Assembly: GCA_036630325.1 (NCBI GenBank)
Contig: CP142731.1
Span: forward strand, 806,001 to 870,000
Source: Vairimorpha necatrix
Taxonomy: Eukaryota
Direction of reading: 5' to 3'
Length of the DNA: 64,000 nt
Shown: positions 688-39,770 of the stretch, in pieces
Layout of the letters: each line of letters begins with the position of its first letter
Numbering within the stretch: position 1 is the stretch's first letter
Translations under genes and position numbers: made by a program
The notes under the pieces: model-generated
Databases searched by the model: none
Told to the model about the DNA's origin: nothing
Seen by the model: the letters and a program-made list of their open reading frames with translations, nothing else

Positions 688-1028
688 TGTGGTATAATAT
701 CTCATACCACATGTTTATGGTGACCAATAGACGATGAAACGCTAATGTGCTTTGATACACGTCAAGCATCTCTAATTGTTAGTGGACAGTTCTGAAACAC
801 TAATTTCTAATTGGTTACACACAAATATAAATAACGAAATTCATCACTTAAAAAGAATGAGGATGCCTAAGAACAACAACAGCCGCACTCCAGCTCAGGC
901 CCATGACGCCAATAACAATAAACACTATTCAAATACATTTACACCTACCTTGGGAATTCACGGTACACATAACCGTAGCATTATTGAATGCTTTCTTGCC
1001 ACTGGCACAATTCCAGGTAAATACGCCA
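688..1028 (+). repeat. 5' LTR (341 bp)
   Basis: Starts TGTGGTAT, ends TACGCCA; repeated at 3433-3773. Confidence 0.95.
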
Positions 1029-3442
1029 ATTTGAGCTCAAATGGCAATAAAGGTACAAAGTCATTTACAACTGGAGATAAACATCATTACGCGGAATTTA
1101 AAAGAACTGTTGAAGGTACAGACGTACCAATCCAAGACTATATACTTAAGATATTTAATATCAAATCAGATCTCACTACAGCAGGTCTCAAAGAGTTTGA
1201 AACTCTTTCTGAATATAACAAGTGGAATGACACACAAAGCGGTCATATTTACCATAGTCTAATCTATGATTCTACTTATAAGGATAAACTTACTAGGAAC
1301 AGTTACAAGGCACTGAGAAAAGAACTTCTAGACATACTGTATCCAAAGACCCAACACAGGATTCTCTCGCAAAAAATTGACAATATCAGGCAAACTGATC
1401 ATTTTTCCATTAACGAGTATATGGAAACAATTTCTAAAGGATTAGAAGGCTACATTCATGTCAACGATCTTTCAAGAAAGGAAGTGGATAGAAAACAAGA
1501 AGAAATATTTTTCAAAGGTTTGGGAAGATATACCACTATCAAGATTGCCGATCAAAGACTTAAAACGGCTCCATTTCAAGAAATTATTCAATTTTTAATA
1601 GAACTGGAAGAAAGCATATTATCCCAGTCCACAGAGACCAAACAAGGCTTAATAACCCAGACAACGGGTGCGAACAAGACTAAATACGCCTTTACTAATA
1701 AGAAGTGGTGTAAATACCATCACTCGAAGTTTCACAACACTATAGATTGTTCCCTTCATAAAACCTCACAATCAGAAGATGTCAAAAGCATGATTATCAC
1801 TGAACTTAAAGTCGACAATCATGAAGGGATAAAAATTCAAGGAGAATTAAATGGAACTAACCTACAGTTATTTGTTGACACGGGTGCATCTTGCAATTAT
1901 ATTCACGAAAAACTGTTAAAGTCCTTAAAGCTGAACACAATTGAAACTAAACCTCTAACTATGATATTTGGATGTGGTACTAAAGAAACCACTAGTCGAG
2001 CCGTCGAAACTAAAATACGTATTAAGGATAAAGACTATGATATCACATTTTATGTTTTACAGCGTATACCAGAAGATATTATCTTGGGATATGAATTTTT
2101 ATATGCTAACGAAGCAGTAGTAAACTTAAGAAAGAAAATTATTACCTTAGGAAATGGACATACTATCCCATTTATTGGGGTTGAAGTTACATCCGAGGAA
2201 ATTCTTGATGAAATATTAGCTGAAAGCACTTGCTTACCCATACTCATGGAAGATAAAAAACATTATAAGTTACCAGAAGCTACAAAAACAGAGATTAACA
2301 GATGGAAACTGATCATGAATAAATTTAATCATAAGATCTTCCATATCAAAGGAAAGGATAACACAGTAGCAGACACATTATCGCGTTGTCTACTTTTACA
2401 GATCATGCCTCTCAAGATACAATACGACAATGTCGTTAAAACTTCATGCACGTCAAACAACGGCGTATTACTCAGGAACGATAGAGGCCAACTGGTTATC
2501 AGGAATGACAAAATCAAATCTTTCCTAAAAAGCATACATGACATATCAGGTCACCGAGGAGTCACTACACTCTACAACAACATTAAAAAATACATTTACG
2601 TAAAAAACGCCCTACAAAGGATATCTTGGGTAGTAAAAAGTTGTTCTGTATGCAGAAAATTCAAGATAATTAACAATAGTCATCATAATACGGTGAAGAT
2701 GGATTCATCTAGATTATACGAGCGCATATCATCAGATATCTTCGGACCATTCAAGTATCATACTCCTTCCCCGAACTCTGAGGAGAAGATAGGATATATA
2801 CTTACGATATCAGATATATATTCTAGAGAAGTAATGTTAATATTCTTTAAGACGATTAAAACTCAAGAATTAATCGATTATATAGAAGCATGGATTAAAA
2901 CAAGAGACAGGCCTAAGCATTTAATATCGGATAACGGACGACAATACATCTCCGCAGGTTTCAAAGAGTATCTAGCTACTACAGGAATAAATCACATTCT
3001 AATACCGACATACACACCCAAATCAAATGGGATATCCGAACGCTTGAACCAAACTATTGCCTTCACGCTTTCCATAAACAAATTCCGAGACATCTACGAG
3101 ACTGTTAAAGAAGCAGAAAATATATTAAATATCAACTTTAATCGAGGGATTAAAGCCTCGCCTTATCTTATAGCATATGGCAGGGACTTCTACGATTTAG
3201 ACACCAAACAGCAAACAATAACGAAAAACCCAAACGCTGTAGCGTATACTTCTAAGTTCAACGTGGGAGACATTGTCTACAAAAGAAATTTAAAAGCAGG
3301 AAAACTCGATCGGAAATATGGAACAAGACAAATAGTTGAAGAAGTGGGAAGCAAAGGTAAATGGGTTCGCTTAAAAGATGACGAATCATGGACGCATGTC
3401 CGAAACTTGAAATTTTGTTGGAGTTGGCAGTATGTGGTATAA
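857..3442 (+). CDS. Gag-protease-(RNase H tail)-integrase polyprotein, ~861 aa from first ATG
   Basis: Zn knuckle WCKYHHSKFHNTIDC; protease LFVDTGASCNYI; RNase H tail RWKL..HIKGKDNTVADTLSR; integrase HHCC (HDISGH..CSVC) and D,D35E (SSDIFGP, ISDNGRQY, SNGISER); no YxDD. Confidence 0.88.
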   Translation: MRMPKNNNSRTPAQAHDANNNKHYSNTFTPTLGIHGTHNRSIIECFLATGTIPGKYANLSSNGNKGTKSFTTGDKHHYAEFKRTVEGTDVPIQDYILKIFNIKSDLTTAGLKEFETLSEYNKWNDTQSGHIYHSLIYDSTYKDKLTRNSYKALRKELLDILYPKTQHRILSQKIDNIRQTDHFSINEYMETISKGLEGYIHVNDLSRKEVDRKQEEIFFKGLGRYTTIKIADQRLKTAPFQEIIQFLIELEESILSQSTETKQGLITQTTGANKTKYAFTNKKWCKYHHSKFHNTIDCSLHKTSQSEDVKSMIITELKVDNHEGIKIQGELNGTNLQLFVDTGASCNYIHEKLLKSLKLNTIETKPLTMIFGCGTKETTSRAVETKIRIKDKDYDITFYVLQRIPEDIILGYEFLYANEAVVNLRKKIITLGNGHTIPFIGVEVTSEEILDEILAESTCLPILMEDKKHYKLPEATKTEINRWKLIMNKFNHKIFHIKGKDNTVADTLSRCLLLQIMPLKIQYDNVVKTSCTSNNGVLLRNDRGQLVIRNDKIKSFLKSIHDISGHRGVTTLYNNIKKYIYVKNALQRISWVVKSCSVCRKFKIINNSHHNTVKMDSSRLYERISSDIFGPFKYHTPSPNSEEKIGYILTISDIYSREVMLIFFKTIKTQELIDYIEAWIKTRDRPKHLISDNGRQYISAGFKEYLATTGINHILIPTYTPKSNGISERLNQTIAFTLSINKFRDIYETVKEAENILNINFNRGIKASPYLIAYGRDFYDLDTKQQTITKNPNAVAYTSKFNVGDIVYKRNLKAGKLDRKYGTRQIVEEVGSKGKWVRLKDDESWTHVRNLKFCWSWQYVV

Positions 3443-14174: not shown

Positions 14175-14440
14175 AAGATTTGTTTTTTTAAAATATTCAT
14201 TTTTCTCAGATTTTTATAAAATTTTCTCAAAAACATTATATAAAAGATTTGTTGCTTAAAAAAATATTCAAACTTCTCAGATTTTTATAAAAATTTACAG
14301 AAAAAAAATAAGATAAAGAAGATTTGTTTTTAAAAAAATATTCAAACTATTCAGGTTTTTATAAAATTTTATAGAAAAAATATTTTCTAAAAAATAAGAT
14401 TTGTTGTTTTAAAATATTCATTTTTTTCTGGATTCCAAAT
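14175..14440. repeat. ~65-75-bp degenerate tandem repeat, about four copies
   Basis: AAGATTTGTT..AAAATATTCA..TCAGATTTTTATAAAATTT repeated. Confidence 0.6.
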
Positions 14441-14537: not shown

Positions 14538-15113
14538 TTACATGCCATCTTTACGGTAAGGACTTTGTCCGCATATTTTTCTCACTTTAATACGGCTTTT
14601 TAAATTCGAGTCTCTATTATATTTAGCAGAATAAACATGAACCCAAGTCTTCCCCATTTCTTCATACGCGATTCTGAAAATAATATTGCCATTACCAGTA
14701 TAGTTTTTAGTATAAGCAACTTTCTTGGCTGCCTCGAAAAGTAGTTTAGCTCTATAAATAACTTTCTCTCCCATTTTAGTTATTGGATTATTATTTTTGT
14801 CTACCTCCCAGAAATCTCTTCTGTTTTTAAATTTTGTACTAACTAATTGCAACATTATTTTAACTTTATCATTTAAATCTCTAAGTCTTCTTAATGGATG
14901 GAAATCTTCTTTGTAACTGTTCAGTATTTTCTTCCATTTTCCTTTACCATATTTTTCCAATCCTTCTTTTAATACTTTTATTTCTTCTGGTGTCCAAATT
15001 ATACCTTCTCTTTTGTCTGCATAGGCGTATAAATCAACCACTTCTTCATCTGCTAATATTTCATAGTTTTTTTCAAGTTCAAGATTTTTTTCCTGTTCTG
15101 TTAGTGCGGTCAT
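14538..15113 (-). CDS. Telobox-type Myb domain + MC1-like domain protein, paralog 1
   Basis: WTPEEIKVLKEGLEKYGKGKWKKIL..RRLRDLNDK; C-terminal IIFRIAYEEMGKTWVHVYSAKY. Confidence 0.85.
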   Translation of the reverse strand: MTALTEQEKNLELEKNYEILADEEVVDLYAYADKREGIIWTPEEIKVLKEGLEKYGKGKWKKILNSYKEDFHPLRRLRDLNDKVKIMLQLVSTKFKNRRDFWEVDKNNNPITKMGEKVIYRAKLLFEAAKKVAYTKNYTGNGNIIFRIAYEEMGKTWVHVYSAKYNRDSNLKSRIKVRKICGQSPYRKDGM

Positions 15114-15401
15114 AACGGGGTATTAAAATGAAGCTGAGATACTTACAAAATACGCAGAGATCTTTTCGATCAAAAAGAAATTAAAAAAAAGGAGAAACAA
15201 GAAGAGCACATAAATTACTAAGCATTATAGGTACTAAAAAACAAAATAAACGCATATATTTAATACTGAATTTATGAAACTATATGTGCTATTCCTATAA
15301 AGATAAAACAATTTAAAATGTAAAATATGTGTTTAATGTCCCATTCTAACCGAAATCGATTCTTTTATATTTATTTGAAATTATTTTGTTGAAAAAAATT
15401 T

Positions 15402-16242
15402 GGAGGCGAGGTACCACAGTACCCCACATTTGAGGGTGTTTACTTTATATTTTCGAACCCCAAAAACGAAGTGCAAAATAAAGGAGGAGCAGGAAGGGGA
15501 CAAAAATTACTAAGCACTTATGATATTAAAAATAACAAATAAATACATGCTTTTATTCAAAATTTAATTTTAAATTTAGTTATAATAATCATTTATTGTG
15601 TTGTATCTTTTTTGCCCTTCTTATTTTTTCCATTTTTTTTTAATTGTTGGTTTATTATAAAAGTAGATTTTCTTCAAAAATCTACTTTTATAATAAACCA
15701 ACAATTAAAATTATAAATATTATTTATATAAGAAAATTTAAATAAATGTTCAACGATCTATACAGATTGTTAAATCAAAAAATTTAATTTAAAATATGTT
15801 AAGTTATTTAAAATTATATAGTTTTATGGTTATATTCTTTTTTTAAATTAAATTTCGTATACAAATATATAATTATTTGGTATTTTTACTGTTTAAAGAT
15901 GCAAGTAATTTGAGTGCTAATGATTGCTTCTCCTTTATTTTGCACTTTGTTTTTGGGGTTCGAAAAAATAAAGTGAACACCCTTGGAGGGGGGCGTGTTG
16001 GTCCCCAATTCTAATAAATCAGAAGGGTAAAAAATGCTTGTAAATTAAAAAAAAAGTGTAAAAACTTGTATTAAAATATGATTCTGTACATAAATATGTA
16101 TTTATTTGTTATTTTTAATATCATAAGTGCTTAGTAATTTTTGTCCCCTTCCTGCTCCTCCTTTATTTTGCACTTCGTTTTTGGGGTTCGAAAATATAAA
16201 GTAAACACCCTCAAATGTGGGGTACTGTGGTATCTTTCACCC
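15402..16242. mobile_element. Mutator-type MITE (family A, copy 1)
   Basis: ~135-bp near-perfect TIRs; ends GGAGGCG...TTCACCC; imperfect 9-bp flanks AAAAAATTT/AAAATTTTT; homologous to 30264-31098. Confidence 0.85.
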
Positions 16243-16882
16243 AAAATTTTTATTTTTTTATTAATTTTTGTGCTTTGATTATTTCGAACTTTTAAGTAAA
16301 TTATGTCAAAAAAATAAGCAAATTTAAAGACTTTATATAAATTTAACTTTATAAAAGTAGCAATAAATCAAATCGAATTTGGTTTTAGCTTTTAGGTAAT
16401 ATGTAGATTAAATATTGCTTTAGTGCACCTTTTTAAAATTCATATTTATGTTAAAAAAAATTAATGACAAGCTTGGGAGGGACTAGTAGTTACGCAAAAA
16501 CTGTATCAACTTCATAATCCTTTGTTTTGAGAATTCCGATAGCATTTTGCAACTAAAATCGACAGTAGATCGCTTAATAAATGCTACCATCTCATATTGC
16601 TCTGCAGTAAAACTAAAAACCTTCTTGAAATCTTTTTTGAACATATTTAAAAAAAAAATGAAATTGAAATCGTATTTGTCCAGTTTTAAAAATAGATATA
16701 AATTCAAAAATGTTTTTTATATTTTTCATTTGATTAGATGTTAACATTTTAAAATTTAAATAGCTTAAACTTTTCTTGTAGATCACAAATTTTATTGCCA
16801 CAGTTTCATGCACATGTGTTATTCAGAGTTTTTCTGTATTTTTTTGATATTGCTAAGGACCATGGCGTTTTTTATGAAAAAT

Positions 16883-17464
16883 TCAGTTTTTTGACATACC
16901 ATGTTTACGATATGGACTTTCTCCGCAGATCTTCTTTACTCTGATACGTGTTTTTATTTTTGAATCTCTATTATATTTAGCCGAATAAACATGCACCCAA
17001 GTTTTTCCCATTTCCTCATAAGCAATCCTAAAGATAATGTTCCCTTTGCCCGTATAATTTTTAGTAAATGCAATTCTTTGAGCGGCATCGAAATGTTCTT
17101 TAGATCTAATAATAACCTTTTCTCCCATTACTAGGATTGGATTATTGTGTTTGTCGACTTCATAAAAATCTTTCACTGATAAATGTCTGTGTTTCAAATG
17201 CATCAATACCCTAAATTTCTCTCTTAAATCATCTTTTCTTCTTGACTTATTAAGACATTGCTTATAATTATCAAAGATTGTTTTCCAATTGCCCTGGCCA
17301 AATTTTTCTATTCCTTCTTTCAATAACTCAATTTCTTCTGGCGTCCAAATTATACCCTCTCTCTTGTCTGCATAAGCGTATAGATCAACTAAATCTTCAT
17401 CTGCTAAAATTTGGTAGTTTTTTTCGAGTTCAAGATTTTTTTCCTGTTCTGTTAGTGCGCCCAT
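16883..17464 (-). CDS. Myb + MC1-like protein, paralog 2
   Basis: High similarity to 14538-15113; CCCC before ATG. Confidence 0.85.
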   Translation of the reverse strand: MGALTEQEKNLELEKNYQILADEDLVDLYAYADKREGIIWTPEEIELLKEGIEKFGQGNWKTIFDNYKQCLNKSRRKDDLREKFRVLMHLKHRHLSVKDFYEVDKHNNPILVMGEKVIIRSKEHFDAAQRIAFTKNYTGKGNIIFRIAYEEMGKTWVHVYSAKYNRDSKIKTRIRVKKICGESPYRKHGMSKN

Positions 17465-18660
17465 TTACGGGGTATTAAAAATAAAGTAAACTTAAAATCT
17501 CATAAATGAAGTACACCTCGTGAAATTTATAATACAAATAATCAAAATATATTTTTGTCTAATGGCGAGTTTTGCAAATGTAGTTTTTTTCAAGAACTAT
17601 TTTTTCCAATTTAATATTAGCTTTAATTTGTTGTAAAATTATAATATTAAATTTTGAACGGGAGTGCTATATATTCATTGGAAATTTTGAGCTGTGTTTT
17701 TCTAAACTAAAAAAATGTATGTTAATGTACCTCTAGAATTAAACGCTGATAAAAAACAAAGAAAGGTAGAAAACCCAAACAGAATTATGTGTTAAATAAA
17801 TATGTTTTTTTACATCGTCCATTATGCCTTTCTATGTATTATTTGATTTTAAAGTAAAGCAGTTTCTTATTATTCATAATTGACATGTTTTCCTTACCTT
17901 TCAAATTTAATATTGCTAGTTTTAACTCACGTTGTATTTTACTATGTAATGAATGTAGTGTTCTATGTTCGAAAACATATTTTAAAAGTCTCCTTCAAAA
18001 TTTAGCATAGCACATGCCTCGATTTGGTTGGATAGTAGTATAAAAATATTTTTGCCAATTGTGTCTAGATCATTAGAACCGTTTTCAGTGCATAATTTAA
18101 TTTAATTTTTTAAATCTATAAAGTTTTACTTGTGTCTGCTTTTTATATCTTTACGCAACTTTTTTTGTTAATGTACTAATGTAAAATATTTAAAAAAAGT
18201 TAATATATGCTTTAAAATTATTGAAATTTAGTACCACGTTAGCTTCATAATTTATTGTTTTAATAATGTAATTTATTATTACATATCATGTAAAATAGAC
18301 AGTAGATCGTTAAAATTTAATACTTTATAACTTTGTTATATTACTAAATTTTCTTTGAAGAGACATCTGGTCAACGTTCTAATGATGAATATCATATAAT
18401 CTAAAAAGTGATAAATATAGCTAGAGTGTTGCGATGTCGCCTAAAATAAATAAAATACATGATTTTTATATAGACAAATACATTGGATCATATTAAAGGT
18501 TTTAAAATTACATCGGGGTTAAAATTAAAATTTTTAAATTTTTTTTGTATAAAAAAAATTTTATTGGCACAGTTACCTACACAAGTATATATCAAAATTA
18601 TTGTAACACCTGTGGGTCCTCCAGCGTTTGTTATGTTTTAAGAGCCTTACACAGATTATT

Positions 18661-19236
18661 TCACATATTTTCTTTGCGGCGAGGGCTTTCTCCGCAAATT
18701 TTCTTTACTCTGATACGTGTTTTAAATCTTGAATCTCTAATATATTTAGCCGAATAAACGTGTACCCAAATTTTCCCCATTTCCTCATTAGCAATCCTAA
18801 AAATAATATTCCCTTTGCCTGTATAATTTTTAGTAAACGCAACTCTTTTAGCGGCATCGAAATGTGCTTTATCTTTATAAATAACCTTTTCTCCCATTAT
18901 TAATATTGGATTATTGTATTTGTCAACTTCAAAAAAATCTCTTTTATATTGTTTTCTGTAACCACTTTCTTGAATTAATTTCCAAAATTTTTTTGCTAAA
19001 TCATCTGGTCTTCTTAATGGATGAAGATGCTGCTTATAATGTTCGTAAATTTTCGACCATTTTCCCTGGCCAAATGTTTCTGTTCCTTCTTTCAATAACT
19101 CAATTTCTTCTGGTGTCCAAATTATACCCTCTCTCTTGTCTGCATAAGCGTATAGATCAATTACATCTTCATCTGCTAAAATTTGATATTTTTTTTCGAG
19201 TTCAAGATTTTTATCCTGTTTTGTTAGTGTGCCCAT
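18661..19236 (-). CDS. Myb + MC1-like protein, paralog 3
   Basis: Paralog; ATG at 19236 follows CCC and aligns with the paralog starts. Confidence 0.85.
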   Translation of the reverse strand: MGTLTKQDKNLELEKKYQILADEDVIDLYAYADKREGIIWTPEEIELLKEGTETFGQGKWSKIYEHYKQHLHPLRRPDDLAKKFWKLIQESGYRKQYKRDFFEVDKYNNPILIMGEKVIYKDKAHFDAAKRVAFTKNYTGKGNIIFRIANEEMGKIWVHVYSAKYIRDSRFKTRIRVKKICGESPRRKENM

Positions 19237-19693
19237 TAACAGGGTAAAAAATACAGAAAAATGTAATATTAAATAGATGTTATTTATGTTATGATTTTTA
19301 TGAGACAAATAATTAATTTTGTCTTGTTTAAAGTTTATGTTTAAGCAATTGAAACTTTTTAAAGGATTTAGAATTTTTTACAAATATATAATATTGGTTT
19401 TTACTTAATATATTCATTTTTTTTTCTTTGCTTTAATGTTTTGATTTCTATTTAGTTGTATTACTATTGTTTCAAACACAATGTCAGTTACTTTTACTGC
19501 TTAATTTATAACTTTAGTAAAGAGAAAACAAAGAACGTCCAGAGATCTTCATAGAAATAGAAAAAAATTATTAAATATATTCATTCAACGCCTAACATAG
19601 AACTTTATAAAGTCGTGTTTTTGGATAGGATTTTGGCACTAGAAATGCCCTTTTATAATACAAGATGATTTTTCGACATTTTTGTTGTATATC

Positions 19694-20454
19694 GGTGCCC
19701 CCATCCAAGAGACATAAAGCAAGCATGCTATAAGATGACTGCATTCAAATCCTATGTACTAAAAACTTTTCAGTTGTTATAATGCAAATGTATTTACTCA
19801 GAGGATGCAAATGTCCACGATGATCATTAAGTTGATTCAATGAAACTTGTATACGTCCAGCCATAAGTTAATTAGCATCTAGTGTAGAAACGTACCTCAA
19901 GATTAAAAAACAGTATCCGCTTCGTGGTTATTTCTCGATCTTTTTAAAGTATTTGCTGAGTACAGCCTAGTCGGAGCACGTGGCTTGGTACTTTGTGGGG
20001 ATTTTAGATCTAACTAAGAGTCTAGACGAAGAAAAGCAATATAAGGTCCGTGTACCTATCCTACAGAGTCCTTTAGGACGGTGGCCGAAACAGAAGGGAG
20101 ACTAGTAGTCAACTTAGTCCAATAAAAATGCTCTACTGTGTTGTTAAATGCAAGCAAAGTGTTTGAGATGCAGATGATTGTAGAATTCTTCGGCTATTAT
20201 GATTATGTCTTTTTTCGGGCTAGTTAAACAAATCTGTTATTCCAGTTGTAAAGACCCTCTTGACGTGAAATTAGAAGTAGATGGAAAATATTCTTCCGGA
20301 GCCAAAGTATAATGAAGAGGCGGAGCTTGCTGCGCTAGCATTTAATATGGAGTGAGTTTTAGTAGCCAAGAATCATACAGTGACAGTTGGATAAAGATCA
20401 CACCTAAATCTCCCGATTCCTATTAAGGGGGTAGGCCCATCTTACTTGTAAAAA
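19694..20454 (+). mobile_element. Diverged full-length copy of the tRNA-headed SINE-like element
   Basis: Collinear similarity to reverse complement of 38254-39061 (e.g. ATCATTAAGTTGATTCAATGAAACTTGT, ATTAGCATCTAGTGTAGAAACG, GGTGGCCGAAAC, GGAGCCAAAGT, CTTACTTG-A tail); starts GGTGCCC; degenerate ~14-bp TSD. Confidence 0.8.
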
Positions 20455-22494
20455 TTTTGTTTAAATATCGCTTTAGCAAAATCAATAGTTTAAAGTCTGC
20501 AATTTTTTTATTGTTTTTTTCACACTCAAAAAATAATGATTCGTAAAGTAAACAGCACATCAAAAAAATATGGCTTTAATGATATTTCTTCGAGTAATTT
20601 AGTCTAATGTTAACTCCATATTTCGTCGTTTAGATATTTCTTGTAACTTAGTTCGATATTGCTGGTCATCTAAAATCGACGATAGATCCTTGAAAACAGA
20701 TATAACATCTTTTTTGAACTTGATTTTGCTTAATCTTTCGAAATACGACAAGCATTAGAAAGCCTTAGCACATTGTTGCAGATAGTTGGTATTAATAAAT
20801 GTCAAATAAAATATCTAAAAGAGAGGTTGATTAGTGTCAATTTCTATATATGGTTCAGTAATGGTCAATAATAATTAAGGTGGGGTCTGGGAGTTGTTCT
20901 TCATGTCTATATTTTTTTTCATTTTTTTAGTTAATATTAAAGTTCAATTCTAATTATAGTATTATTTGATTGCGATAAATAAACAAATTATTGTATAAAA
21001 AATTTGTTTCAACTTTATGACATACTACAATGTTTCTATCTACAAACACAAGTCAAAAATTCTTTTATTATGTCATATCTTTGTACCGTGTCTATTCTCA
21101 CTACACACTTAAAAGCTTCGATTAGAATCCTCAAGGAAGCATGTATAATATAAGAGCCTCAAAATTGCTTTTTGTCACAATACGACGTAGAAATCGGCCT
21201 GTACTGATCAGGAATGCTACTCAAAAACTCAATGAACGGATGTCTGAGGAAACTCTGAAGCTGTAGTTAGAAGAACTGAGTGGTTTCTGGGAAAAATAAA
21301 AGAATGATAAAGGTATTACGCCCGAATATTCAAACATGTTGATGACAAAATTGATACATGGTAATTCCAAAATTATGTTGTAAATGTTTATTCTAGAAAA
21401 AAATATATTTCAACATTTTTTATTTGTGTTGTCTAGTGTATAAATTTAGATAATTTTATGATACTTTATTAATATTTTAAAAATCTAATTTCAAATTTTT
21501 GCACTAAAATTTTTATCGGTTTATATTATTATTTTTCTTTATAAAAATTTTGCTAATTATATTAAAGCCAATTTTCCTTGCAAAAAACTTTAGACAAACT
21601 GTTTTAAAATTATCTTTATATTTATTGATGTTTTCCATATTTAAAACTAGACTTCTATATTAATTTAGCGTTTTTTTGGATTTTTTTATTCGAAAAGGAC
21701 TGATAAAAAAGGATGAATTATGATTTATTTTTTTTTATAACATTTAAGTGAAAAATATATTGAATTGGTAATGTTTAAAATCATATCTAAGTTTTGTGAG
21801 ATTTTTATTTCAAATTAAGAACATTTTTTTTATTTCACGTTCTTTCTAAGAGGTAAAAATTTAAAATGAATTTTTTTATAATGTTTTATATTTTTTTGTG
21901 AATTAAAAAATTCTAAGAATTAATTCTGAATATATTCTGGTATTGAGTTTTAGAAAAATAAACATTTTAACAAGAAATTAACATTATTGTTTACGCAACA
22001 TAATTATTAAAAATTACAAAATTTTATATTGTAACAACACGTTGAAAGACACACCATCCATATGGATGACGCAAATTTTCTTGTTCGGATCAACTTCGCG
22101 CACTTTACTTGATGCAATTTTCTTTGATTTTTGCCAAAAATCATAAGTAATTAATAGAACAATTAGGTTGTATGTTTAATGCTGCAAGTATAGCAATTGA
22201 TAGATTTGACGACTTTGCTTTGCAAAAAACTATAAAAGAATAAAATCAAAGGATTTAATTTGTTAAGAGTAAAATGTCTATTTGATTAATAAATTTTTTT
22301 TTAATATTTATCTTTTGGGTAAATTTAAAAAATGGGGAAGTGACTGAACGGGAAATTTTAAAATAGCCCTGACAGCCAACGTGTTAATAAAAAAGTTATT
22401 TTTAATATTAAAGCACAGAAAAGAAGATCAAAAAAAATTTTAAATTTTTTAATAAAAAATATATAAAGATGGAGATATTTACTGCAGGCTCTTT

Positions 22495-23070
22495 TCATCG
22501 GCCTTCTCTACGATTCGGACTTTCCCCCCAAATTTTATTTAGTTTTATAGATTTTGCGCAATTTGGATCGTTAACATATTTAGCCGAATAAACGTGTACC
22601 CATTTCTTCCCCAATTCCTCAAAAGCGATTCTAAAAATAATATTCCCTTCGCCCGTATAATTTTTATGTTTAGCAAATTTAGATGCCGCAACAAAAGGAA
22701 CTCTACATCTATAGATTACTTTCTCTCCTTTTACAAGTATTGGGTTATTGTCTGCGTCGACTTCATAAAAATCTCTAATTTCTTTTTTTTTACAATTAAC
22801 CCAATCATCCATTGATCGTGCTTTATCTTTTAAATCCACAGTTCTTCTCAACGGATTATAAGCATCTCTTTCATCATTTAAGATTTTAGTCCAATTTCCC
22901 ATACCAAATTTTTTTAACCCTCTTTTTAAAGCCTCTACTTCTCCCTGGGTCCATTTTACCGCTGTTCGTTTTTTTTTGTATGCGTATAAATCCACTATAT
23001 CTTCGTCTGCTAATATTTGGTAATTTTTCTCAAGTTCTTCATTATTTTCTTCTTTAGTTAGTCTGGCCAT
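22495..23070 (-). CDS. Myb + MC1-like protein, paralog 4
   Basis: KWTQGEVEALKRGLKKFGMGNWTKIL..RRTVDLKDK (telobox-like); ATG 23070 after CCC. Confidence 0.85.
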   Translation of the reverse strand: MARLTKEENNEELEKNYQILADEDIVDLYAYKKKRTAVKWTQGEVEALKRGLKKFGMGNWTKILNDERDAYNPLRRTVDLKDKARSMDDWVNCKKKEIRDFYEVDADNNPILVKGEKVIYRCRVPFVAASKFAKHKNYTGEGNIIFRIAFEELGKKWVHVYSAKYVNDPNCAKSIKLNKIWGESPNRREGR

Positions 23071-24486
23071 TAAAAGGGTTAAAAAAAATAAGAGGTTAAA
23101 CAAATGCACATGTATGACACATATGATGTGATTATCATTAAAAATATTTAATTTTTATTTTGAATAAAAATTTAACACACAAAAGCAAAAGTTTTAAATA
23201 AAAAAAGAGGTATTTTTTCCTCTAGAATATGTCAAAATTTAAATAAGAAATATACTTTAGTATTATGATTTGCAATGCAATGTGTATACAAATATAATAT
23301 TTGAGCTGTTTTGTTTATCTCTGTGTCAAATTGTAAATTAGATTAAATCGTTAATTAATAACTGACGCAAAAAAAGAAAAACAAACAAAATCTTAAGTAT
23401 TCATTTACATAAAATATAAGAATTTTATGAAAAAAGTGTTAATATATTTCGTTGAGTTATTATAATTATTGTCGCGCGCCCGGCGCGCGACCGCGCCCAG
23501 TGCGCGACCGGAAGAATTCGTGAAGAAATTTTACATAAACATATTGTATGTTCAATCTAACTTCAGAATTGAGGATTAAAAGTGTATTATTAACAAGGTT
23601 ATATACAAAAAGATCTTATTTTTGTAGTAACACTTTACTAACGCCCACTTACATCATGAACATAAACAAAATACAAGATTTTTTAAATTAAAGGTAGATT
23701 TTTGTCAAATTGGGTTAAGCTTTTTTTAATTTTATAAGCGCATTAAGATTATAACAAAGAGATCTAACGGATAACTCATTAAGCTATTTATTTATATGCA
23801 TATACATAAAAAAATTACAAATTTAAGGGTACATTGTATTCAATTATTTCTTTTCATAATGCTTAATTAGCTCTATTTTTATGGTTTGATTTTTATAGAT
23901 CAGCTTAGAAGATTCTTAGAATTTAATTAAACTTCAATTTATAAGAATTTTTATAAACAATAAAAATAAATTAAAAGAAACATTTATATATAAACTAAAG
24001 TAATTTTTTATTACATTAAAAACTCTTAACACAAGTTTTGATTATCTTGGAAAAATAAATTAAAAAAATAAAAATAAGATGTTGTGCTCAAATATAAAGT
24101 TTTAGAAAAAATACCTAAATTTGAGTTCACAAAAATTCATTTTAGTTAATTAGGTACCCATAGCTGTGTAAAGATTACATTTTAGACGCCCGTTCAATAA
24201 ATAGTCTACGAAGGTCATTTGAAAATTATATTTCTAGTACGTTGGTATTTGCATTTTTACACTTTATTCTTTAAAATAACGCACATCATATATATATTAT
24301 AAAATAAATTATATTTAAAAAAACGGGCTTAGTGATATCTTTTTAAACAGATAACTTTCTTAATTCAAAAACATACAATTTTCATGAATAAAACATTAAA
24401 TGTAGTTTTCAATGTATAAATTATATAAAAAGATCGTAAACAACTAAAATTTATAGTAAAACAAATAGTAAAATTTATCTCAAGGC

Positions 24487-25707
24487 TCATTTATTTAATT
24501 TTTTAACCAGATTCATTGATATAATTTCCTCCTTACCTTCGTATTTTAACCTTAATCGGTTATTCGATAAAATTTCTATTACTTCCCGTGGTTCACTATA
24601 AAAAGAACTCAATTTTAGTTTTTTTGTTTTCGTATTAGTGTCGAAATCTTTTTTTACAACCACTAAATCTCCAATAGAAAAATCGTTGATGGAATTATGA
24701 ACACATTTTCTGTCCAATCGAGCCAAATATTTTTCATTACATACTGCATCACTTCCTGTAATCGTGTTTACAGTTGTTTCATCCTCATCAGTGCAATCAT
24801 CATCATTCTCCCTTAGACATGTATTGTATCCAAGGCTTCCGTACCATAACTTATAGGGAGACTTCTTTGTAGCAGAATGTACAGCGGTATTATAGTCATA
24901 AACAACTGTATTAATGACCGCTAGCCAGTTCTTATTGTTAAAACCTTTTTCGCAAAGATGTTTTTGCAGGTAGCGAGTAAGGGTTTGATTAAACCTCTCG
25001 ACTTGTCCTTGACTCTGGGGATGACGAGGTCTGCCATGAATAAGCATTATTTTATTTTGTTTACAAAATTCAACTAATGTTTCATTTTTAAACTCTTTGC
25101 CGTTGTCGCATTGAAGTATAGCAGGAAAGCCTAACGTTTGAAATTTGTATTCTAACCGTGATACGACTTCAGCGGCGGTTTTAGTTTTCAAAGCAGAGAT
25201 AAAAGCATATTTAGAAAATACATCTATTGCTGTGAGTATCCAACTAAAACCATCATTTTCATCACTATAAGTCCTCATATCAACAAGATCAATAATAAAT
25301 CTTTCAAAGGGTCTTTTAGCGACGATGTGCTTGAACTTTTCTTTTGTTTTAAGAGGTTGTGCTGTCATGCATATATTGCATTCACTGCAAACCTCCCTTA
25401 CAATACACCTAGGTATACTGAAGTATTGTTCCTTACACTTATCATAGAGACGGTTCGCGCCATAATGATGCTGCCGATGAAGTCCTTGGACCTCTATTTT
25501 CATAGCTTGGACCATAGTACTTACAAATACTCTTTTGTGCCAGCCCCCCACATCCTTCAAGAAAAGAATGTTATCCACAAGAATAAAACTTTGGGATTTC
25601 TTCTTTAGCCTATATTTTAAATGTTTGTCACATTCTAGGCTAACCTCATCCCCTTTGAGTATTTGGACAAGCCGATCATACTCAACTTGGTCTTTTACTT
25701 CTTTCAT
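24487..25707 (-). CDS. Integrase-type (rve) DDE transposase
   Basis: HHCC (HRQHH..CNIC), IIDLVDM, LQCDNGKEF, PQSQGQVERFNQTL; uninterrupted. Confidence 0.92.
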   Translation of the reverse strand: MKEVKDQVEYDRLVQILKGDEVSLECDKHLKYRLKKKSQSFILVDNILFLKDVGGWHKRVFVSTMVQAMKIEVQGLHRQHHYGANRLYDKCKEQYFSIPRCIVREVCSECNICMTAQPLKTKEKFKHIVAKRPFERFIIDLVDMRTYSDENDGFSWILTAIDVFSKYAFISALKTKTAAEVVSRLEYKFQTLGFPAILQCDNGKEFKNETLVEFCKQNKIMLIHGRPRHPQSQGQVERFNQTLTRYLQKHLCEKGFNNKNWLAVINTVVYDYNTAVHSATKKSPYKLWYGSLGYNTCLRENDDDCTDEDETTVNTITGSDAVCNEKYLARLDRKCVHNSINDFSIGDLVVVKKDFDTNTKTKKLKLSSFYSEPREVIEILSNNRLRLKYEGKEEIISMNLVKKLNK

Positions 25708-25775
25708 AGAGGGTAAAGAAAAAATTTTTTTTAAAATGATGAATCTGTACTATAATTATTTGCAAAATATTTTAG

Positions 25776-25851
25776 TCAACCAGCTTGGCACAGTGGTTGT
25801 TATGGTCAATTGTTACTTTGAAGGTCGTAGGTTCGAATCCCACGTGTTGAA
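25776..25851 (+). ncRNA. tRNA-like (pseudo-tRNA) sequence with Pol III A and B boxes inside the transposon
   Basis: A box TGGCACAGTGG, B box GGTTCGAATCC, partial acceptor stem TCAAC/GTTGA; anticodon arm poorly paired (TTGTTAC loop, Asn-like). Confidence 0.6.
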
Positions 25852-27084
25852 AATTTATGTAGGGGTCATAAAAAGATAGTTGAATAATCATAAACAGTTA
25901 ACATACAGAATACATAACTTGTATAATTACAAATTTCAAATGTTAAAAATTCTGTTAGGTTAAAAAAATTAGGAAAAAATCCGGTCGCGCACTGGGCGCG
26001 GTCGCTCGTTGGGCGCGCGACAATTATTAATGATAGTTACCTATCTATCTACTTTCAAAATATAAGAGGTTAATTTAATCTTTAAGCTCTTTTTTGTAGG
26101 TTTCAATCTTAATTTTTGTAGGCTTATTTGACTATTTATATACTAAAAATGCACTTAATGAAAAGACTTGATAGTTATTATTGTGCGTACTTCTGGTAGA
26201 AAATTTTCTAATATTTTTTAAAAAATTTTATTCGATAAAACATACTTAAGAAAATTTTCAAAGTCGATTTTTCTAATTTCAACCTCTGTCTATAAAACTG
26301 AAAAAACATAAACACATAAATATTAAAGTCGAAAAAACAAAATGGCAACAAATATAGCTTGAAAGTGTTTTAAAATAATTTTTACCGCTTGATATTAGCA
26401 TAAGGGTATTTTTACATTCCACAAAACCTCTTTCTCTGATTTTTAAATTAGGTTAATTATAGGAGAAAATCAGAACTAAAATGAAAAATGTAGTAAAAAA
26501 TTATTTTTCGATTAGGACATTCTTTAGCTAGTAGCAATATATACGTTCACATTCATGAATATGGTTATATAATAATTAAACATTGACTTCAAGTGATATT
26601 TTTTTGTTTTTAAAAATGATATTGTTTGTATAACTAAGTTAAAGATCAATTGTACTTATTAAAAAACAAATGTCAAAAATCTTTTAGTCCTGAAATTTGA
26701 TCAAGTACGTTGGCTTTTTAAATCCCGACTGTAAAATTTTTTAATGATTTTTAAAATAAGTAAAATCTCTTGGGTATGAAAATCGACTATATTAAGTTTT
26801 ATTGATACAATCTATAAGTCAAAGGTTTATTTTATTAAGTAAAAAATTTTAAAAAGTTATGCTTTTAACTATTTAAAACGTTTACAAATATCACTAAACG
26901 TGAAAATTTTGATGTTTCAAGTTAATCAAACCAAATTCTCAACGACACCTTTTTTTACGATCGGAATTCGATGTTTCCCTTTTTATTTCGCGATTTTTGT
27001 AATTTTTTTACAATTTTGCTAAAAAATTTGCTAACAAAAAAAAGATGAAATGTTATATGGTTTATTAAATTAGTTTCTATTGAT

Positions 27085-27660
27085 CTACATACCATCTCTA
27101 CGGTATGGACTTTGCCCTGCTAATTTTCTTACGTTTATAGATTTACGCTTAGCTGACCCATTATTGTATCTGGCCACATAAATGTGTATCCATAACTTTT
27201 CGTTTTCTTCATAAGCGATTCTTATAATAATATTAACATTTTCCTTAAAACTTTTAGAAAAAGCGCAATATCTTGCTGCTTGATGGGGATGTTTACATTT
27301 ATATAGTACCTTTTCCCCATTTACACATATAGGATTACTTTCATTGTCAACCTCCCAAAAAAATTTATGTGGATGTTTGGCGCCTGTTGGTCCATTTTCT
27401 ACACATCTATATTTATCACACAAATCTTTCATTCTTCTTTCTGGTCTAAAGTCATCTTTGTAAAATTCTAGAATTTCTTTCCATTTTCCTTTACCAAATT
27501 TTTTTATTCCTTTTTTCAATGTTTCCAGTTCTTCCTGTGTCCAAGTAATTCTTTTTCTCTTGTCTGCATAAGCATATATACCTTCTAATTCTTCATCCGT
27601 CATTGTTTCTGGTTTTATATGTAATTCAATAATATTTTCATTTTCTTTAGGTGTGTCCAT
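27085..27660 (-). CDS. Myb + MC1-like protein, paralog 5 (most diverged)
   Basis: KRKRITWTQEELETLKKGIKKFGKGKWKEIL..DLCDKYR; C-terminal YKCKHPHQAARYCA..IIIRIAYEE..IHIY. Confidence 0.85.
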   Translation of the reverse strand: MDTPKENENIIELHIKPETMTDEELEGIYAYADKRKRITWTQEELETLKKGIKKFGKGKWKEILEFYKDDFRPERRMKDLCDKYRCVENGPTGAKHPHKFFWEVDNESNPICVNGEKVLYKCKHPHQAARYCAFSKSFKENVNIIIRIAYEENEKLWIHIYVARYNNGSAKRKSINVRKLAGQSPYRRDGM

Positions 27661-27715
27661 CAACAAGGGAAGAAAAAGTAGTTAACAATAAAAAAATATA
27701 TATATTCGAATTCAT

Positions 27716-29362: not shown

Positions 29363-31547
29363 TTATTTTGTCCATGGATTTTCTTCTTCAATTTTAACAA
29401 CAATATTTTTACTGATTTCCAGTGGGGCTGATATTTCTTCATTTTCAGTTATATTTGATTTTTCAGGTTCCAGATTTTTTTTCATACTAAAATATAATTC
29501 ATAACAACTAGACAAGGTAAATGACTTGATTTTAAGTTCATTTAGCCCAAATAAGCTTGAAATTCCATTTTGCTCTTTTTCATTTACCGTTATTAATTTC
29601 TTATCCTTTTCTAAATTAATTATTTTATCTTTTAGATTTATTGTTATAATAAGACTATTAATCAATTTATCAATATTGTCTCGGATTTCATCCCCAAGCA
29701 GAAGAAGATTTTTCTCATCAAATTCATTTAACAAATTCTTTTTACTATCAAAAATTGATACAATGGATTTGTTGTTAGAATTTTGTAATTTATTTAATAA
29801 ATTAGAATATTTTTGGCAAATTTTATTTAAATTAAAAATTTGAAAAAAGTGTATAAATTTGGATCTAGTCACAGATACAAAAACAATGCTCCATTCTCTT
29901 GTCAGACCTCTTTTAATTTTATACATGCCGTATTTTATAGGTTCAATATTTTTATAAATATTTATATCTTTTTTACTTAAATCAATATTCATATTTTGCA
30001 TTATTTCTTCATACGCGTTAATTATTTTTGACTCGTTTACCTCCTTACCATTTTCTGAAGAAACGTCATAGTACTTTTCAGTATTATGAGATATGCTAAA
30101 TTTCAAATGAGAAATTTCTGACAGGTCCGAGTACAAAACCTTTTGCTCCTTACAAAATTTATTTAGTAACTGCGTGTACAAGTCTTGAATATTTAGAAAT
30201 TTATCAGTGTACATCGATTTCATTCCACTTATCACAAAATCATTATTTTCTTTATAATTGTACGGAGGTGGGGTACTTTAGACCCCCCCCTTTGAAGCGC
30301 TTCAATTTTTTTTTCGAACCCCAAAATTGAAGTGCAAAAAAAAAGAGGAGCAAGAAAGGGACAAAAATTACTAAGCACTTATGACATTAAAAACAATAAA
30401 TAAATATATATTTATGTACACAATTATATTTTAATACAAGTTTTTACAATAATATAAACCAATAAGCATTTTTTGCCCTTCTGATTTTTTAGAATTGGGG
30501 ACAAAAACGCTCCCCTCTGAGAGTGTTCACTTTATAATTTTGAACCCCAAAAACGAAGTGCAAAATAAACGAGAAGCAATCATTAGTACTCAAATTACTT
30601 GCATCTTCAAACAGTAAAAACACCAAATAAATATATATTTGTATTCGAAATTTAATTTAAAAAAAGAATATAACCATAAAACTATATAATTCTAAATAAC
30701 TTAACATATTTAAATTAAATTTTTTGATTTAACAATCTGTATAGATCGTTGAACATTTATTTAAATTTTCTTATATAAATAATATTTATAATTTTAAGTG
30801 TTGGTTTATTATTAAAGTAGATTTTCTTCAAAAATCTACTTTCATAATAAACCAACACTTAAAAAAAATTGAAAAAATAAGAAGGGCAAAAAGACACAAT
30901 ACTTCAAATGGTTATTATAAATAAATCTAAAATTAATTTTTGTATAAGAGCATATGTTTATTTATTGTTTTTAATATCATAAGTACTAAGTAATTTTTGT
31001 CCCTTTCTTGCTCCTCTTTTTTTTTGCACTTCAATTTTGGGGTTCGAAAAAAAAATTGAAGCGCTTCAAAGGGGGGGGGTCTAAAGTATCCTTCACCCTA
31101 ATTGTACATATTTTTAATGGCTGTTTTGAGACAAATATCTGTAATCCAAGGATCTTTATTCATGATCCAACTTTCTAAATGTGCTATTTTTGCCTTTTCT
31201 AGTTCTTTATTTTTTTGCTCTTCCTGTTCAATAACTTTTGATAGGTTAGTTTCAATATGTAAAATTTCTTCATTTACTTGATTTTCTAGATCATTTAATT
31301 CTTTAAATAGCTCGATATAGGAATTTGAAGCATGGTCAAACATTTCCTTTTGCTTGGCGCTTAATTCTACTAAGTTTAATAAATTCGTGTCATTCCATTC
31401 AGTGTCCCTTGGAAGTTGAGTCGCGCGAGATAAAACATCTGAGGACTTCTTAAATACGACGTCGAGGCATTCAAAATAGTTTCTTATGAATTCAATTTTA
31501 GTTTTCAATGTTTGATAATAATGAATTAACCTTTTGACCTCATCCAT
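29363..31547 (-). pseudogene. Coiled-coil/BAR + PH-domain gene (Slm1-like architecture) interrupted by a MITE
   Basis: Removing 30264-31098 and one TSD joins ..IKNMYN to YKENNDFVISGMKS.. in frame (446 aa); PH-like YGMYKIKRGLTREWSIVFVSVTRSKFIHFF. Confidence 0.8.
30264..31098. mobile_element. Mutator-type MITE (family A, copy 2)
   Basis: Long TIRs; perfect 9-bp TSD TAATTGTAC at 30255-30263 and 31099-31107. Confidence 0.93.
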
Positions 31548-37305: not shown

Positions 37306-38199
37306 TTGGGGATAAATTGAAAAAAAAAGTTTGTTTGATCATTTTTTATTATAAAAAATTTAGGATACTAATAAATTTTTAAAAAGACAAAAATATGTAA
37401 AAATTTTTATATAAAAGTATAAAGCATATTAAATTTGAGAATTAAGTTTTTCAAGGCAATTTTAGAACATGACATAATATTTATATATCTAGTTTTAGAA
37501 GAGTTTATTTGTTTACTATAGACGTCAAACTTTCCTATAAACACGTCGATTAAAGAGAGCTGTCAACGATCTAATTGCATCAAATTAGACAATCTCTTAA
37601 AAGATTGAAAATAGAGAAAAACTTTCTACATATTATTTATTGTTACATAAAATTCTTACTATTTTTATAAACATTTTTTTATAGGACTTACTATTTCAAC
37701 AAATAGGAATAAATTTAGAAACAAATTAGGGCTTGATTAAATATTACGGGGTCTGTTCCATTATTTTACCTTCCCCAACATTATAAGAATACTTTTTAGA
37801 TATTTTTTTGATTTAATGTGCTCTCTAAGCGGCTTAAAATATATTTTTGTATTTTTTTTAAATGTACAAATATGTAATTCTTACATCTATTAATTTTTAT
37901 CATGGAGATCGATAAACCTTTGATCATAGACATAGTGATAGGCACATATTTATTTTTTTACTACGTTGTAAAAGACTAAATCTTTTCTTATTCATTTTTC
38001 TATTAACAAAGCCACCATTTACCACAAATGACTTCATTTGTTTGGAAAAATAAGCTAAAAATTTCAAGAATATTACATTATAAGTCTGACAACTTGGTAT
38101 ACGAATGAAATTAGGTTGCATTCGGATTTTTGTTTAACATTAAGTCTTTGTTTATCTTCACCATAAACATAAAGTGTCAAAGCCTTCCTCTTAAGTAAT

Positions 38200-39770
38200 T
38201 GTTAAAAACAATTGTAAGTTAAGGGTTAAATTTATTAAATCTATATTCTTAACTTTTTTTTTTTTTTTTTTTTTTTTCTTTGCAAGTAAGAGGTAGGGAG
38301 AAACCTTACATAGGGACCAGAGGGATTTGGGTGTGATCCTTTTCCAACTGGTACTGTGAGATTCTTACTCACTAAAACTCCCTCCGTATAACTTGCCGGT
38401 GCAGCAAGCTCCGCCGTATCCATTGGACTTTGGCTCCAGGAGAACACTTTCCATTTATACCTCAAATCGCGTCCAGAGTGACCTCACAGCGGATATACTT
38501 AACGGGCATGGTTATCTATAACCCGAGGAGAGACATCATCGTACTGACTCAAAGGTCCCTACAATCATCTGTATCGCACACACGGCTCCTTACACGACCA
38601 CATCCCCAGCCCGGCATTTTTATTGGACTGCGTTGACCACCAGTCTCCCACTAGTTTCGGCCACCGTGTTACAGAATCATGTAGGATAGGGTCCACGAGA
38701 CCTTCTATTGCCCTACTTCGTCTAGTCTCTTAGTTAGCTCTAGGATCCCACTCTAGAGTGCACCAGCCATGGGCTCCAACTAGGCCGTACCCATTAGATA
38801 CTTTTATGTATCATTAAGTCACCAAAGGGCGATACTGCTTTTTGGCCTTGAGGTGCGTTTCTACACTAGATGCTAATCCCCTTGTGGCTGGACACACACA
38901 AGTTTCATTGAATCAACTTAATGATTACCGTGGACATTTTCATCATCTGAGTTGTTCCAACTGCATCATAGAAAGTAGAAACAATTTGGTGCCCCTGGGA
39001 CTCGAACCCAGCCCATTGGTCAATGAGAACATCCCTTCGACCACTCGGCCAAGGGCACCTCTCTATATTCTTAACATCCCCGCGCTAAATTTAGAATTGG
39101 GCGATGAAATTATCTACATATTTCTACGCCTACTACTTGGCTCTAAAAATAAAAGTGCATTTTTATGTTAACTAACCATGGGCTGCGCTTTACTCCATCG
39201 CGTCTTACAATCCCTTCTAGTACTGGTCTTCGAGGTACTTTCTTTCCCTGTTTTAATACATAAAGTCTATGGGCATGTGATCATTCGTAACCCATGTCTT
39301 CCCAACAATGAAATCGGATTTTTTCCGTCTATCTCATTCTTCGACTATAACACAGTTTCTTTTTGATTTTCTTCTCTTTTTAAATCTCTCTGTATTTTTG
39401 AACACTACTGGTTCAGCTATCTTGCCACGATAGCTTAAATGTGAATAGTGGGATTACCACTACACTCAATCTCGACAACTCTTATGCCAGATCTTATTAC
39501 AGTCAATACTGTTTCTCCATAGCTCTTCATGGCTACTTTACGTCTTCACCAATCCGGGTCCCTCGACTGATGCAAGCCACCACCTTCTCTTCTGTTAGAC
39601 AACCAACCATCCCCATTCTAACCTAGACTGCATTTTTTTTACGTCTCATGCTTCGACGGAACTTACGACCTCTTCTTTTGTTTTTGTTTGAGTTCAATAA
39701 TTTTATTCTCCACCATGTTAAAGACAATTATAAGTTAAGGGTTAAATTTATTAAATCTATATTCTTAACA
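38200..39770 (-). mobile_element. Non-autonomous short-LTR (TRIM-like) retroelement, 55-bp LTRs
   Basis: LTRs 39716-39770 and 38200-38253 (+39076), TG..CA, 2 mismatches; 5-bp TSD GTAAT; PBS TGGTGGAG and PPT GCGCGGGGA on minus strand; decayed interior. Confidence 0.85.
38254..39061 (-). mobile_element. tRNA-derived SINE-like element (~808 bp) inserted in the TRIM 3' LTR
   Basis: tRNA head 39059-38987 (GGTGCCC/GGGCACC acceptor stem, TGGCCGAGTGG, GGTTCGAGTCC); A24 tail at 38254-38277; 14-bp TSD TCTATATTCTTAAC at 38240-38253 and 39062-39075. Confidence 0.9.

Follow-up and report, generated by a model that had tools for sequence, protein, structure and literature searches.

MC1 (Methanogen Chromosomal protein 1, PF05854) is a small, basic, DNA-bending protein of Euryarchaeota, and relatives such as Mimivirus gp275 are reported from Mimiviridae, Phycodnaviridae and Marseillevirus bins (preprint 10.1101/2024.02.22.580433). 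Its fold is described in PMC5671483 as occurring in eukaryotic viruses 'but not in eukaryotic proteomes', and no algal homologue was found in the work on gp275 (10.1101/2024.02.22.580433). A design that joins a Myb repeat to a domain from a general chromatin architectural protein is known from plants, where the small paralogous family of Single Myb Histone proteins (SMH, also TRB; TRB1-5) carries an N-terminal telobox Myb, a central linker-histone H1/5 winged helix and then a coiled coil, as outlined in PMC10167121. Telomeric proteins of the TRF1/TRF2, Taz1, Tbf1 and Teb1 type have a Myb repeat too, placed at the C-terminus of much larger proteins behind a TRFH or other dimerisation domain. 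Here, we describe five genes of the microsporidian parasite Vairimorpha necatrix whose products combine a telobox-type Myb repeat with a basic C-terminal domain resembling MC1. They lie in a stretch of 64,000 nucleotides (nt), hereafter the window, of GenBank assembly GCA_036630325.1 (contig CP142731.1, positions 806,001 to 870,000). We consider it rather probable that they arose by expansion, within one lineage, of a small nuclear DNA-binding protein made of an acidic stretch, a telobox Myb and a very divergent relative of MC1.

The listing of open reading frames (ORFs) places five intact, co-oriented genes of 191-193 amino acids (aa) each on the minus strand between 14538 and 27660. All share one architecture: an acidic N-terminal stretch (~35 aa), a single Myb repeat and a basic C-terminal domain (~95 aa). 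The scores in the list below are those of the Pfam Myb model (PF00249) and of a hidden Markov model (HMM) of archaeal MC1.

14538-15113, minus strand: paralog 1, 191 aa; acidic N-terminus aa 1-35, Myb ~aa 36-92 (14838-15008), MC1-like basic domain aa 97-191 (14541-14825; isoelectric point, pI, 10.0); PF00249 29.7 bits, archaeal MC1 HMM 9.3 bits; ACCCC before the ATG.
16883-17464, minus strand: paralog 2, 193 aa; Myb ~17192-17359, MC1-like domain 16886-17182; PF00249 33.4 bits, archaeal MC1 HMM 7.7 bits.
18661-19236 from the ATG, minus strand: paralog 3, 191 aa; Myb ~18961-19131, MC1-like domain 18664-18948; a TTG ORF extends to 19308; PF00249 27.8 bits, archaeal MC1 HMM 6.3 bits.
22495-23070 from the ATG, minus strand: paralog 4, 191 aa; Myb ~22795-22965, MC1-like domain 22498-22782; a GTG ORF extends to 23109; PF00249 27.7 bits, archaeal MC1 HMM 13.0 bits; the sole member with a Pfam MC1 match.
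27085-27660 from the ATG, minus strand: paralog 5 (protein P0005), 191 aa, the most divergent copy; Myb ~27385-27555, MC1-like domain 27088-27372; a TTG ORF extends to 27666; PF00249 30.7 bits, archaeal MC1 HMM 6.9 bits, combined HMM 8.6 bits.
15114-15128, 17465-17479, 19237-19251, 23071-23085 and 27661-27675: start-site motif regions upstream of the five ATGs.

In the end-to-end alignment, which has 61 invariant columns, paralogs 2 to 5 are 68, 67, 58 and 49% identical to paralog 1. A tblastn search of the window with the five proteins returns exactly five copies and zero fragments. The likeness at the DNA level stops at the coding parts, and no repeat or boundary of a transposable element (TE) surrounds the copies. 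The original prediction, made from the letters of the window, had announced five co-oriented genes of about 191 aa with one Myb repeat each, and the ORF listing, the alignment and PF00249 (5/5) bear this out. It had also called the paralogs tandem. This stands for the co-orientation but not for tight tandem duplication: the spacers (1.8, 1.2, 3.3 and 4.0 kb) are long and mutually unrelated and the last contains an integrase-like ORF, so that the arrangement is a dispersed co-oriented array. The motif ACCC[CT] lies 4-8 nt upstream of the ATG in all five paralogs, which otherwise have little in common upstream, and supports the ATG starts over the longer TTG and GTG ORFs. A CCC-like signal close to start codons is typical of microsporidia.

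The Myb repeat is the easier half of these proteins to place. PF00249 scores 27.7-33.4 bits in the five paralogs, above its curated cut-off of 24.4 bits, and also matches all five outside relatives scanned (P0006, P0009, P0010, P0011 and P0012). When the full-protein profile is run against PDB sequences, TRF1 comes first (E 2.7e-6) and TRF2 follows (~3e-5), the two together spanning 2.7e-6 to 4e-5. Zebrafish Terfa, plant TBP1 (3e-4 to 2e-3) and fungal telomeric Mybs all rank ahead of c-Myb (0.06). The AlphaFold model of full-length paralog 1 has TRF1/TRF2 Myb domains as its top Foldseek rows (probability 1.00, TM by target 0.69-0.88). Since TRF1/TRF2 are best both by PDB sequence and by fold, the evidence supports a repeat of the TRF/telobox type, nearer telomeric Mybs than c-Myb/SANT, as had been proposed. 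The position and setting of the repeat differ from those of TRF1/TRF2, Taz1, Tbf1 and Teb1-type proteins, for here it is N-terminal in a protein of 191 aa. The plant SMH/TRB proteins are closer in layout; yet, unlike them, the paralogs have a beta-rich MC1-like domain and no coiled coil (for the plant side, PMC10167121). No linker-histone Pfam match appears in the paralogs at E up to 10, and the model is without a long helix. Taken as a comparison of architectures, the likeness to SMH/TRB concerns the design, with homology confined to the Myb repeat.

Within helix 3 the residues D79, L80 and K83 are invariant (D-L-x-x-K), and paralog 4 reads VDLKDKARSM, to be compared with the telobox consensus, approximately VDLKDKWRN. 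Where the telobox, like TRF1, has its Trp, the five paralogs read V, F, F, A and Y. Opposite the Lys of TRF1, presumably a contact residue, their recognition helices carry N, R, A, K and C. Of the three protein parts, the Myb repeat shows the most non-synonymous divergence in the majority of pairs. Because the paralogs differ most in this repeat, recognition helix included, they probably read different sites.

A narrower version of our explanation would have the family bind duplex telomere repeats in Nosematidae, replacing TRF/Taz1/Tay1 functionally on TTAGG, with an MC1-like domain that shapes telomeric chromatin. The nearest matches of the Myb repeat are TRF1/TRF2 and other telomeric Mybs, which speaks for this version, as does the statement in PMC12449221 that V. 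necatrix telomeres are TTAGG. Yet telobox Mybs act at promoters too, as the account of plant TRBs at telo-boxes in PMC10167121 illustrates, and five paralogs with differing recognition helices fit diversified targets better than a single repeat. The window itself offers no telomeric arrays to examine, with no (TTAGG)2-3 or TTAGGG array anywhere in it. A dedicated telomere binder is a doubtful reading. Judged by title and abstract, our literature search returned no paper on a microsporidian telomere-binding Myb protein.

The C-terminal domain demands more caution. The pattern quoted for it in the original prediction is present in the alignment of the paralogs, and the MC1 sequence given there agrees with Methanosarcina-type MC1 genes that we fetched. 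A Pfam scan of the domain finds one family only, MC1, in paralog 4 (E 0.081, 13.6 bits), with domain residues 20-73 aligned to profile positions 14-69 of 96. The best match to MC1 is thus paralog 4 and not paralog 5 as had been suggested, the archaeal MC1 HMM giving the same answer (13.0 bits). As a calibration, the Pfam model was run on five giant-virus MC1-like proteins; two gave no match and two more fell under its cut-off, and the model is therefore blind to divergent members.

We gathered archaeal MC1 genes from loci found with an archaeal 16S probe and then with PF05854 searches, which located MC1 in 3/5, 41/41 and 41/41 genomes. An HMM was built from 56 of these archaeal sequences, with 1,800 composition shuffles as control. 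All nine microsporidian domains score 5.2-13.0 bits, above the 99th percentile of the shuffles (4.0 bits), and three of them exceed the shuffle maximum (8.1 bits). Among the 254 six-frame ORFs of the window, the paralogs take ranks 1-5 (11.0-4.9 bits), the next ORF scoring 1.4 bits. The comparison of alignments with hhalign gave a score of 22.05 against archaeal MC1 (P 0.0022, probability 13%), which was reached in none of 200 column shuffles (mean 11.0, maximum 18.5). Against archaeal and viral MC1 together it gave P 1.6e-4 (probability 50%, 63 columns), with another master sequence P 4.4e-4 (28-34%), and in two further comparisons with MC1 P 0.0043 (8%) and P 0.0086 (4.7%). The viral set comprised seven giant-virus MC1-like sequences from IMG/VR and from a protein collection, and as a positive control these were matched to archaeal MC1 at a probability of 96.8%. 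One member of that group, encoded in giant-virus bin G086 (L190:1243-2001, plus strand), carries, on either side of its MC1-like domain, Lys/Ala/Pro-rich tails that recall those of linker histones; it has no Pfam MC1 match, yet its group is the one that reached 96.8%.

The register is identical in every alignment of the domain with MC1. R-D-F of the family faces R-N-F of MC1, a conserved Lys/Arg faces Lys22, P-F-E-A-A faces P-R-Q-A-A, and E-x-G-x-x-W-V-H-V-Y-x-A faces E-x-G-x-x-K-V-H-V-F-x-A. Invariant residues stand opposite invariant residues, namely the Ala-Ala of the helix and the Glu, Gly and His of the beta3-beta4 hairpin. The motifs shared in this register are R-[DN]-F at beta1, the Lys/Arg at Lys22, P-x-x-A-A-x-K-x-A at the helix and E-x-G-x-x-x-V-H-V-[YF]-x-A at the hairpin. 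The domain is also like MC1 and its giant-virus relatives in its size of ~90-95 aa, in the order and lengths of its elements and in its strong basicity (pI 9.6-10.0, similar to methanogen and viral MC1), while identity across archaeal, viral and microsporidian sequences is ~20% over 90 columns.

Structure prediction leads in the same direction. The AlphaFold model of the domain (paralog 1, nine-sequence alignment) has a confidence (pLDDT) of 84.7 and the order beta-beta-alpha-beta-beta-beta. The elements of MC1 are given in PMC3928310 as beta1 4-9, beta2 15-21, helix 25-34, beta3 43-49, beta4 54-66 and beta5 78-90, and the predicted order agrees with that of this pseudo-barrel (beta1-beta2-alpha-beta3-beta4-beta5). 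In the alignment that hhalign made from sequence alone, 56 of 61 columns have the same secondary-structure state as MC1 defined by nuclear magnetic resonance, when ungapped slides reach at most 69%; this agreement confirms the alignment between the domain and MC1. Giant-virus proteins make up nearly all of the top rows in a Foldseek search of BFVD, and among the best 50 rows six are named MC1-domain or non-histone chromosomal proteins (E 0.03-1.3, Foldseek probability up to 0.98-1.00). In ESM Atlas features, MC1-bearing giant-virus clusters rank 1 and 3 for the domain of paralog 4 (scores 0.81 and 0.80), which we treat as a lead only. For residues 96-190 of the V. bombi orthologue such MC1-bearing clusters hold ranks 1-3 (0.88, 0.86 and 0.85; 177-180 shared features). 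The top ESM Atlas structure for the same residues is an archaeal cluster annotated 'Chromosomal protein MC1 family' (TM 0.66/0.69 over 77 residues), the remaining rows staying at TM 0.53 or below. A wide structural alignment against the PDB also points to MC1. The predicted complex of two copies of the C-terminal domain scored 0.02, a value that speaks neither for nor against a dimer.

Several of our results nevertheless weigh against a kinship with MC1. The 13.6 bits of paralog 4 are below the Pfam cut-off of 23 bits, and eight of the nine family members have no Pfam MC1 match at all, so that the Pfam check names MC1 without reaching membership. The hhalign probabilities are just 4.7, 8, 13, 28-34 and 50% and vary with the alignment; against the seven viral MC1-like sequences alone, the comparison is at noise level (score 14, probability 0.6%). 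The profile of the C-terminal domain finds no MC1 among PDB sequences at E up to 10, where it has three chance rows only, nor among 1.84 billion representative proteins at E up to 0.001. Foldseek with the domain model returns nothing from the PDB at E up to 0.001, and a second-look alignment of 318 Foldseek PDB rows contains no MC1 entry, Foldseek having ranked none. Hence, the structural check proposed earlier yields the MC1 order of elements and giant-virus MC1 rows in BFVD but no PDB match by Foldseek at E up to 0.001. No single MC1 test reaches conventional significance and, the nine members being relatives, their scores are non-independent.

The departures from MC1 at residues that touch DNA count on the same side. 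At the position of Arg25, the residue at the start of the MC1 helix on which binding and bending depend, eight members have Phe and paralog 5 has His. According to the mutant data in PMC3928310, R25A and R25Q cost MC1 more than 100-fold in affinity and abolish bending; the gp275 preprint describes Lys126 as the equivalent that matters in Mimivirus (10.1101/2024.02.22.580433). The LP5 arm of MC1, whose Pro72, Trp74 and Met75 enter the minor groove as PMC3928310 describes it, corresponds here to a polar and basic beta4-beta5 loop of nine residues (model 70-78) that has no Trp, Met or Pro. The beta1-beta2 loop is ~6-9 residues longer than that of MC1. Lys/Arg is retained at the Lys22 position in all nine members and at the Lys30 position in eight. 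A basic V-[RKN]-K is also retained in beta5, a weak pairing that comes from the global alignment alone. If the domain binds DNA, its mode is probably not exactly that of MC1. Because it falls short of the Pfam cut-off and lacks two functional hallmarks of MC1, we do not assign it to PF05854. It further differs from MC1 in being fused behind a Myb repeat and in its host, a cellular eukaryote.

These weaknesses leave room for a different account, in which the C-terminal part, a small alpha+beta domain peculiar to this lineage, converged on beta-beta-alpha-beta-beta-beta and serves dimerisation or partner binding, these proteins being ordinary single-Myb transcription factors without MC1 ancestry. 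Single-Myb telomeric proteins such as TRF1/TRF2 generally need a second domain to pair up, which we count in favour of this account. Self-interaction is documented for plant TRBs (PMC10167121), every MC1 sequence score is under the usual thresholds, and key DNA-contact residues of MC1 are absent. Moreover, the best PDB fold match is not MC1 but the anti-CRISPR phage protein AcrIF9, at low Z and 8-12% identity. There is no sequence signal linking the domain with AcrIF9, whose biology is unrelated, and the likeness probably reflects a common small fold. But convergence would have to explain why five unbiased methods (Pfam, ESM features, ESM structure, BFVD and the wide PDB alignment) name MC1 alone, why 56 of 61 columns share their secondary-structure state and why invariant residues align with invariant residues. 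The pI of 9.6-10 also suits nucleic-acid binding better than a dimer interface. We therefore judge convergence unlikely.

Common ancestry with MC1 is the reading that we prefer. Six kinds of scan point to MC1 alone among families: the Pfam HMM, the archaeal MC1 HMM with its real-sequence and shuffle controls, the profile-profile comparison, two independent structure predictors and language-model features. The link is weak but consistent: of the original claim, what stands is that many weak lines run in one direction, and what fails is the Pfam cut-off, a probability of the grade expected from HHpred, Arg25 and the Trp74-Met75 arm. On this evidence, the domain likely adopts the MC1 fold and descends from a common ancestor with MC1.

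The five genes are old duplicates maintained by purifying selection, which is seen in all ten pairs. Compared in pairs, the whole genes have a ratio of non-synonymous to synonymous divergence (dN/dS) of 0.16-0.52 and the C-terminal domains one of 0.075-0.63; dS is ~1 for every pair except paralogs 2-3, the youngest pair (0.34). Relatives are few. The search of the 1.84 billion representatives matched the paralogs of the window, one 251-aa relative and two repetitive proteins (P0007 and P0008), which we judged spurious as relatives. A word-based search from the 251-aa protein added four more proteins with the same Myb and MC1-like architecture. The only named relative is the hypothetical protein P3W45_000863 of Vairimorpha bombi (Nosematidae), 40-50% identical to the paralogs. 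Scans of viral contigs, metagenome contigs and one giant-virus bin with the C-terminal domain found no relative. As far as these sequences indicate, the family is tiny, comprising the V. necatrix genome and a V. bombi-like group. Two relatives, P0006 and P0009, have an extra N-terminal part of 60-85 aa, rich in Asn/Glu/Lys and with repeated K-I-[VL]-E-S units, before the Myb and MC1-like core.

The tree built from the ten proteins unites paralogs 1-4 in a clade (support 94/92), with paralogs 2 and 3 as sisters inside it (97/99), and places paralog 5 nearest the V. bombi-like group. This topology fits an amplification internal to the lineage of the window, and supports the earlier suggestion to that effect. 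The view that the genes are mere passengers of mobile or viral DNA in a transposon-rich region, without a function for the host, prompted by the retroelement ORFs around and inside the array (rve at 24487-25707; Ty3-type at 776-3442 and 47017-49239) and by the giant-virus clusters that are their nearest neighbours in feature space, is highly improbable given purifying selection in all ten pairs at near-saturated dS, relatives of the same architecture in another Nosematidae species, a start-site motif typical of the genome, a base composition that matches the host, the lack of any repeat or TE boundary around the copies and a scan of viral contigs with the domain that found none.

How could such proteins work? 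The Myb repeat would read a short duplex motif and thereby anchor the protein at specific sites. These might be repeats of the TTAGG type, at telomeres or in subtelomeres, or promoter motifs resembling the telobox. The basic MC1-like domain would add a non-specific DNA contact, perhaps with bending, beside the anchor. We give this mechanism as a whole, a Myb anchor with a DNA-contacting MC1-like module, an even chance of being right. One might go further and speculate that an MC1 gene passed from a giant virus or from an archaeon into an ancestor of Nosematidae, that it came to be fused there behind a telobox Myb, and that the resulting gene was then amplified fivefold in the lineage of the window, its products being sequence-targeted DNA benders that organise TTAGG telomeres and subtelomeres or sets of promoters. 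They would be the first MC1-domain proteins of a cellular eukaryote. This full scenario seems to us possible rather than probable. The signals on the donor are split, as feature space leans to giant viruses whereas hhalign and the ESM Atlas structure lean to archaea.

The window is AT-rich (GC 0.22-0.39). Neighbours of the array include genes for a RING-finger protein, a phosphoacetylglucosamine mutase (whose stop lies ~55 nt before the start of paralog 5), a DUF5098 protein and a polo-like kinase, as well as pieces of Ty3-type retroelements. The other features are the following.

776-3442, plus strand, and 45429-49908, plus strand: Ty3-type protease/integrase and reverse transcriptase/RNase H/integrase ORFs, the second stretch with a Ty3-type piece at 47017-49239.
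14185-14394: three tandem copies of ~70 nt between the RING gene and paralog 1.
15925-16211: in the first spacer, a 59-nt pair that is 93% identical.
19309-22494: a 3.2-kb spacer with no ORF >50 aa.
24487-25707, minus strand: integrase-like ORF (rve), solo, between paralogs 4 and 5.
29363-30235, minus strand: ORF matching Pfam DUF5098 (E 2e-43) over profile positions 159-462 only.
37306-45428 (~8 kb): no ORF of at least 120 aa; a GC bump of 0.39 at 38-40 kb.
38987-39059, minus strand: tRNA-Met.
43181-43263, plus strand: tRNA-Leu, the only Rfam gathering-level match in 37306-45428.
46-50 kb: a block with strong GC skew (+0.37 to +0.43).

DUF5098 is presumably a microsporidian family, and the N-terminal part of this ORF may be missing or its start miscalled. 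The word TTAGG, counted on both strands over the whole window, occurs 78 times and is depleted relative to 100 first-order Markov resamples (125 +/- 11), which may be plain composition or codon bias.

The novelty of this family lies in two known modules joined in a new combination and in an unexpected host. In the literature covered by our search, which lay outside supplements and most subscription journals, we found no paper linking the MC1 chromosomal protein with microsporidia. Were the link with MC1 wrong, an ordinary small lineage-restricted Myb family would be left. If it is right, the fusion of a eukaryotic MC1 relative with a sequence-specific Myb would represent a new design for a targeted architectural factor, and would give a handle on the telomere or promoter chromatin of microsporidia, about which almost nothing is known. 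Under the capture scenario, sequence-targeted DNA benders would be found in a parasite whose set of the usual chromatin components is much reduced. The family would then also bear on how giant viruses acquired MC1, as a missing eukaryotic link in the puzzling distribution of this protein between archaea and giant viruses.

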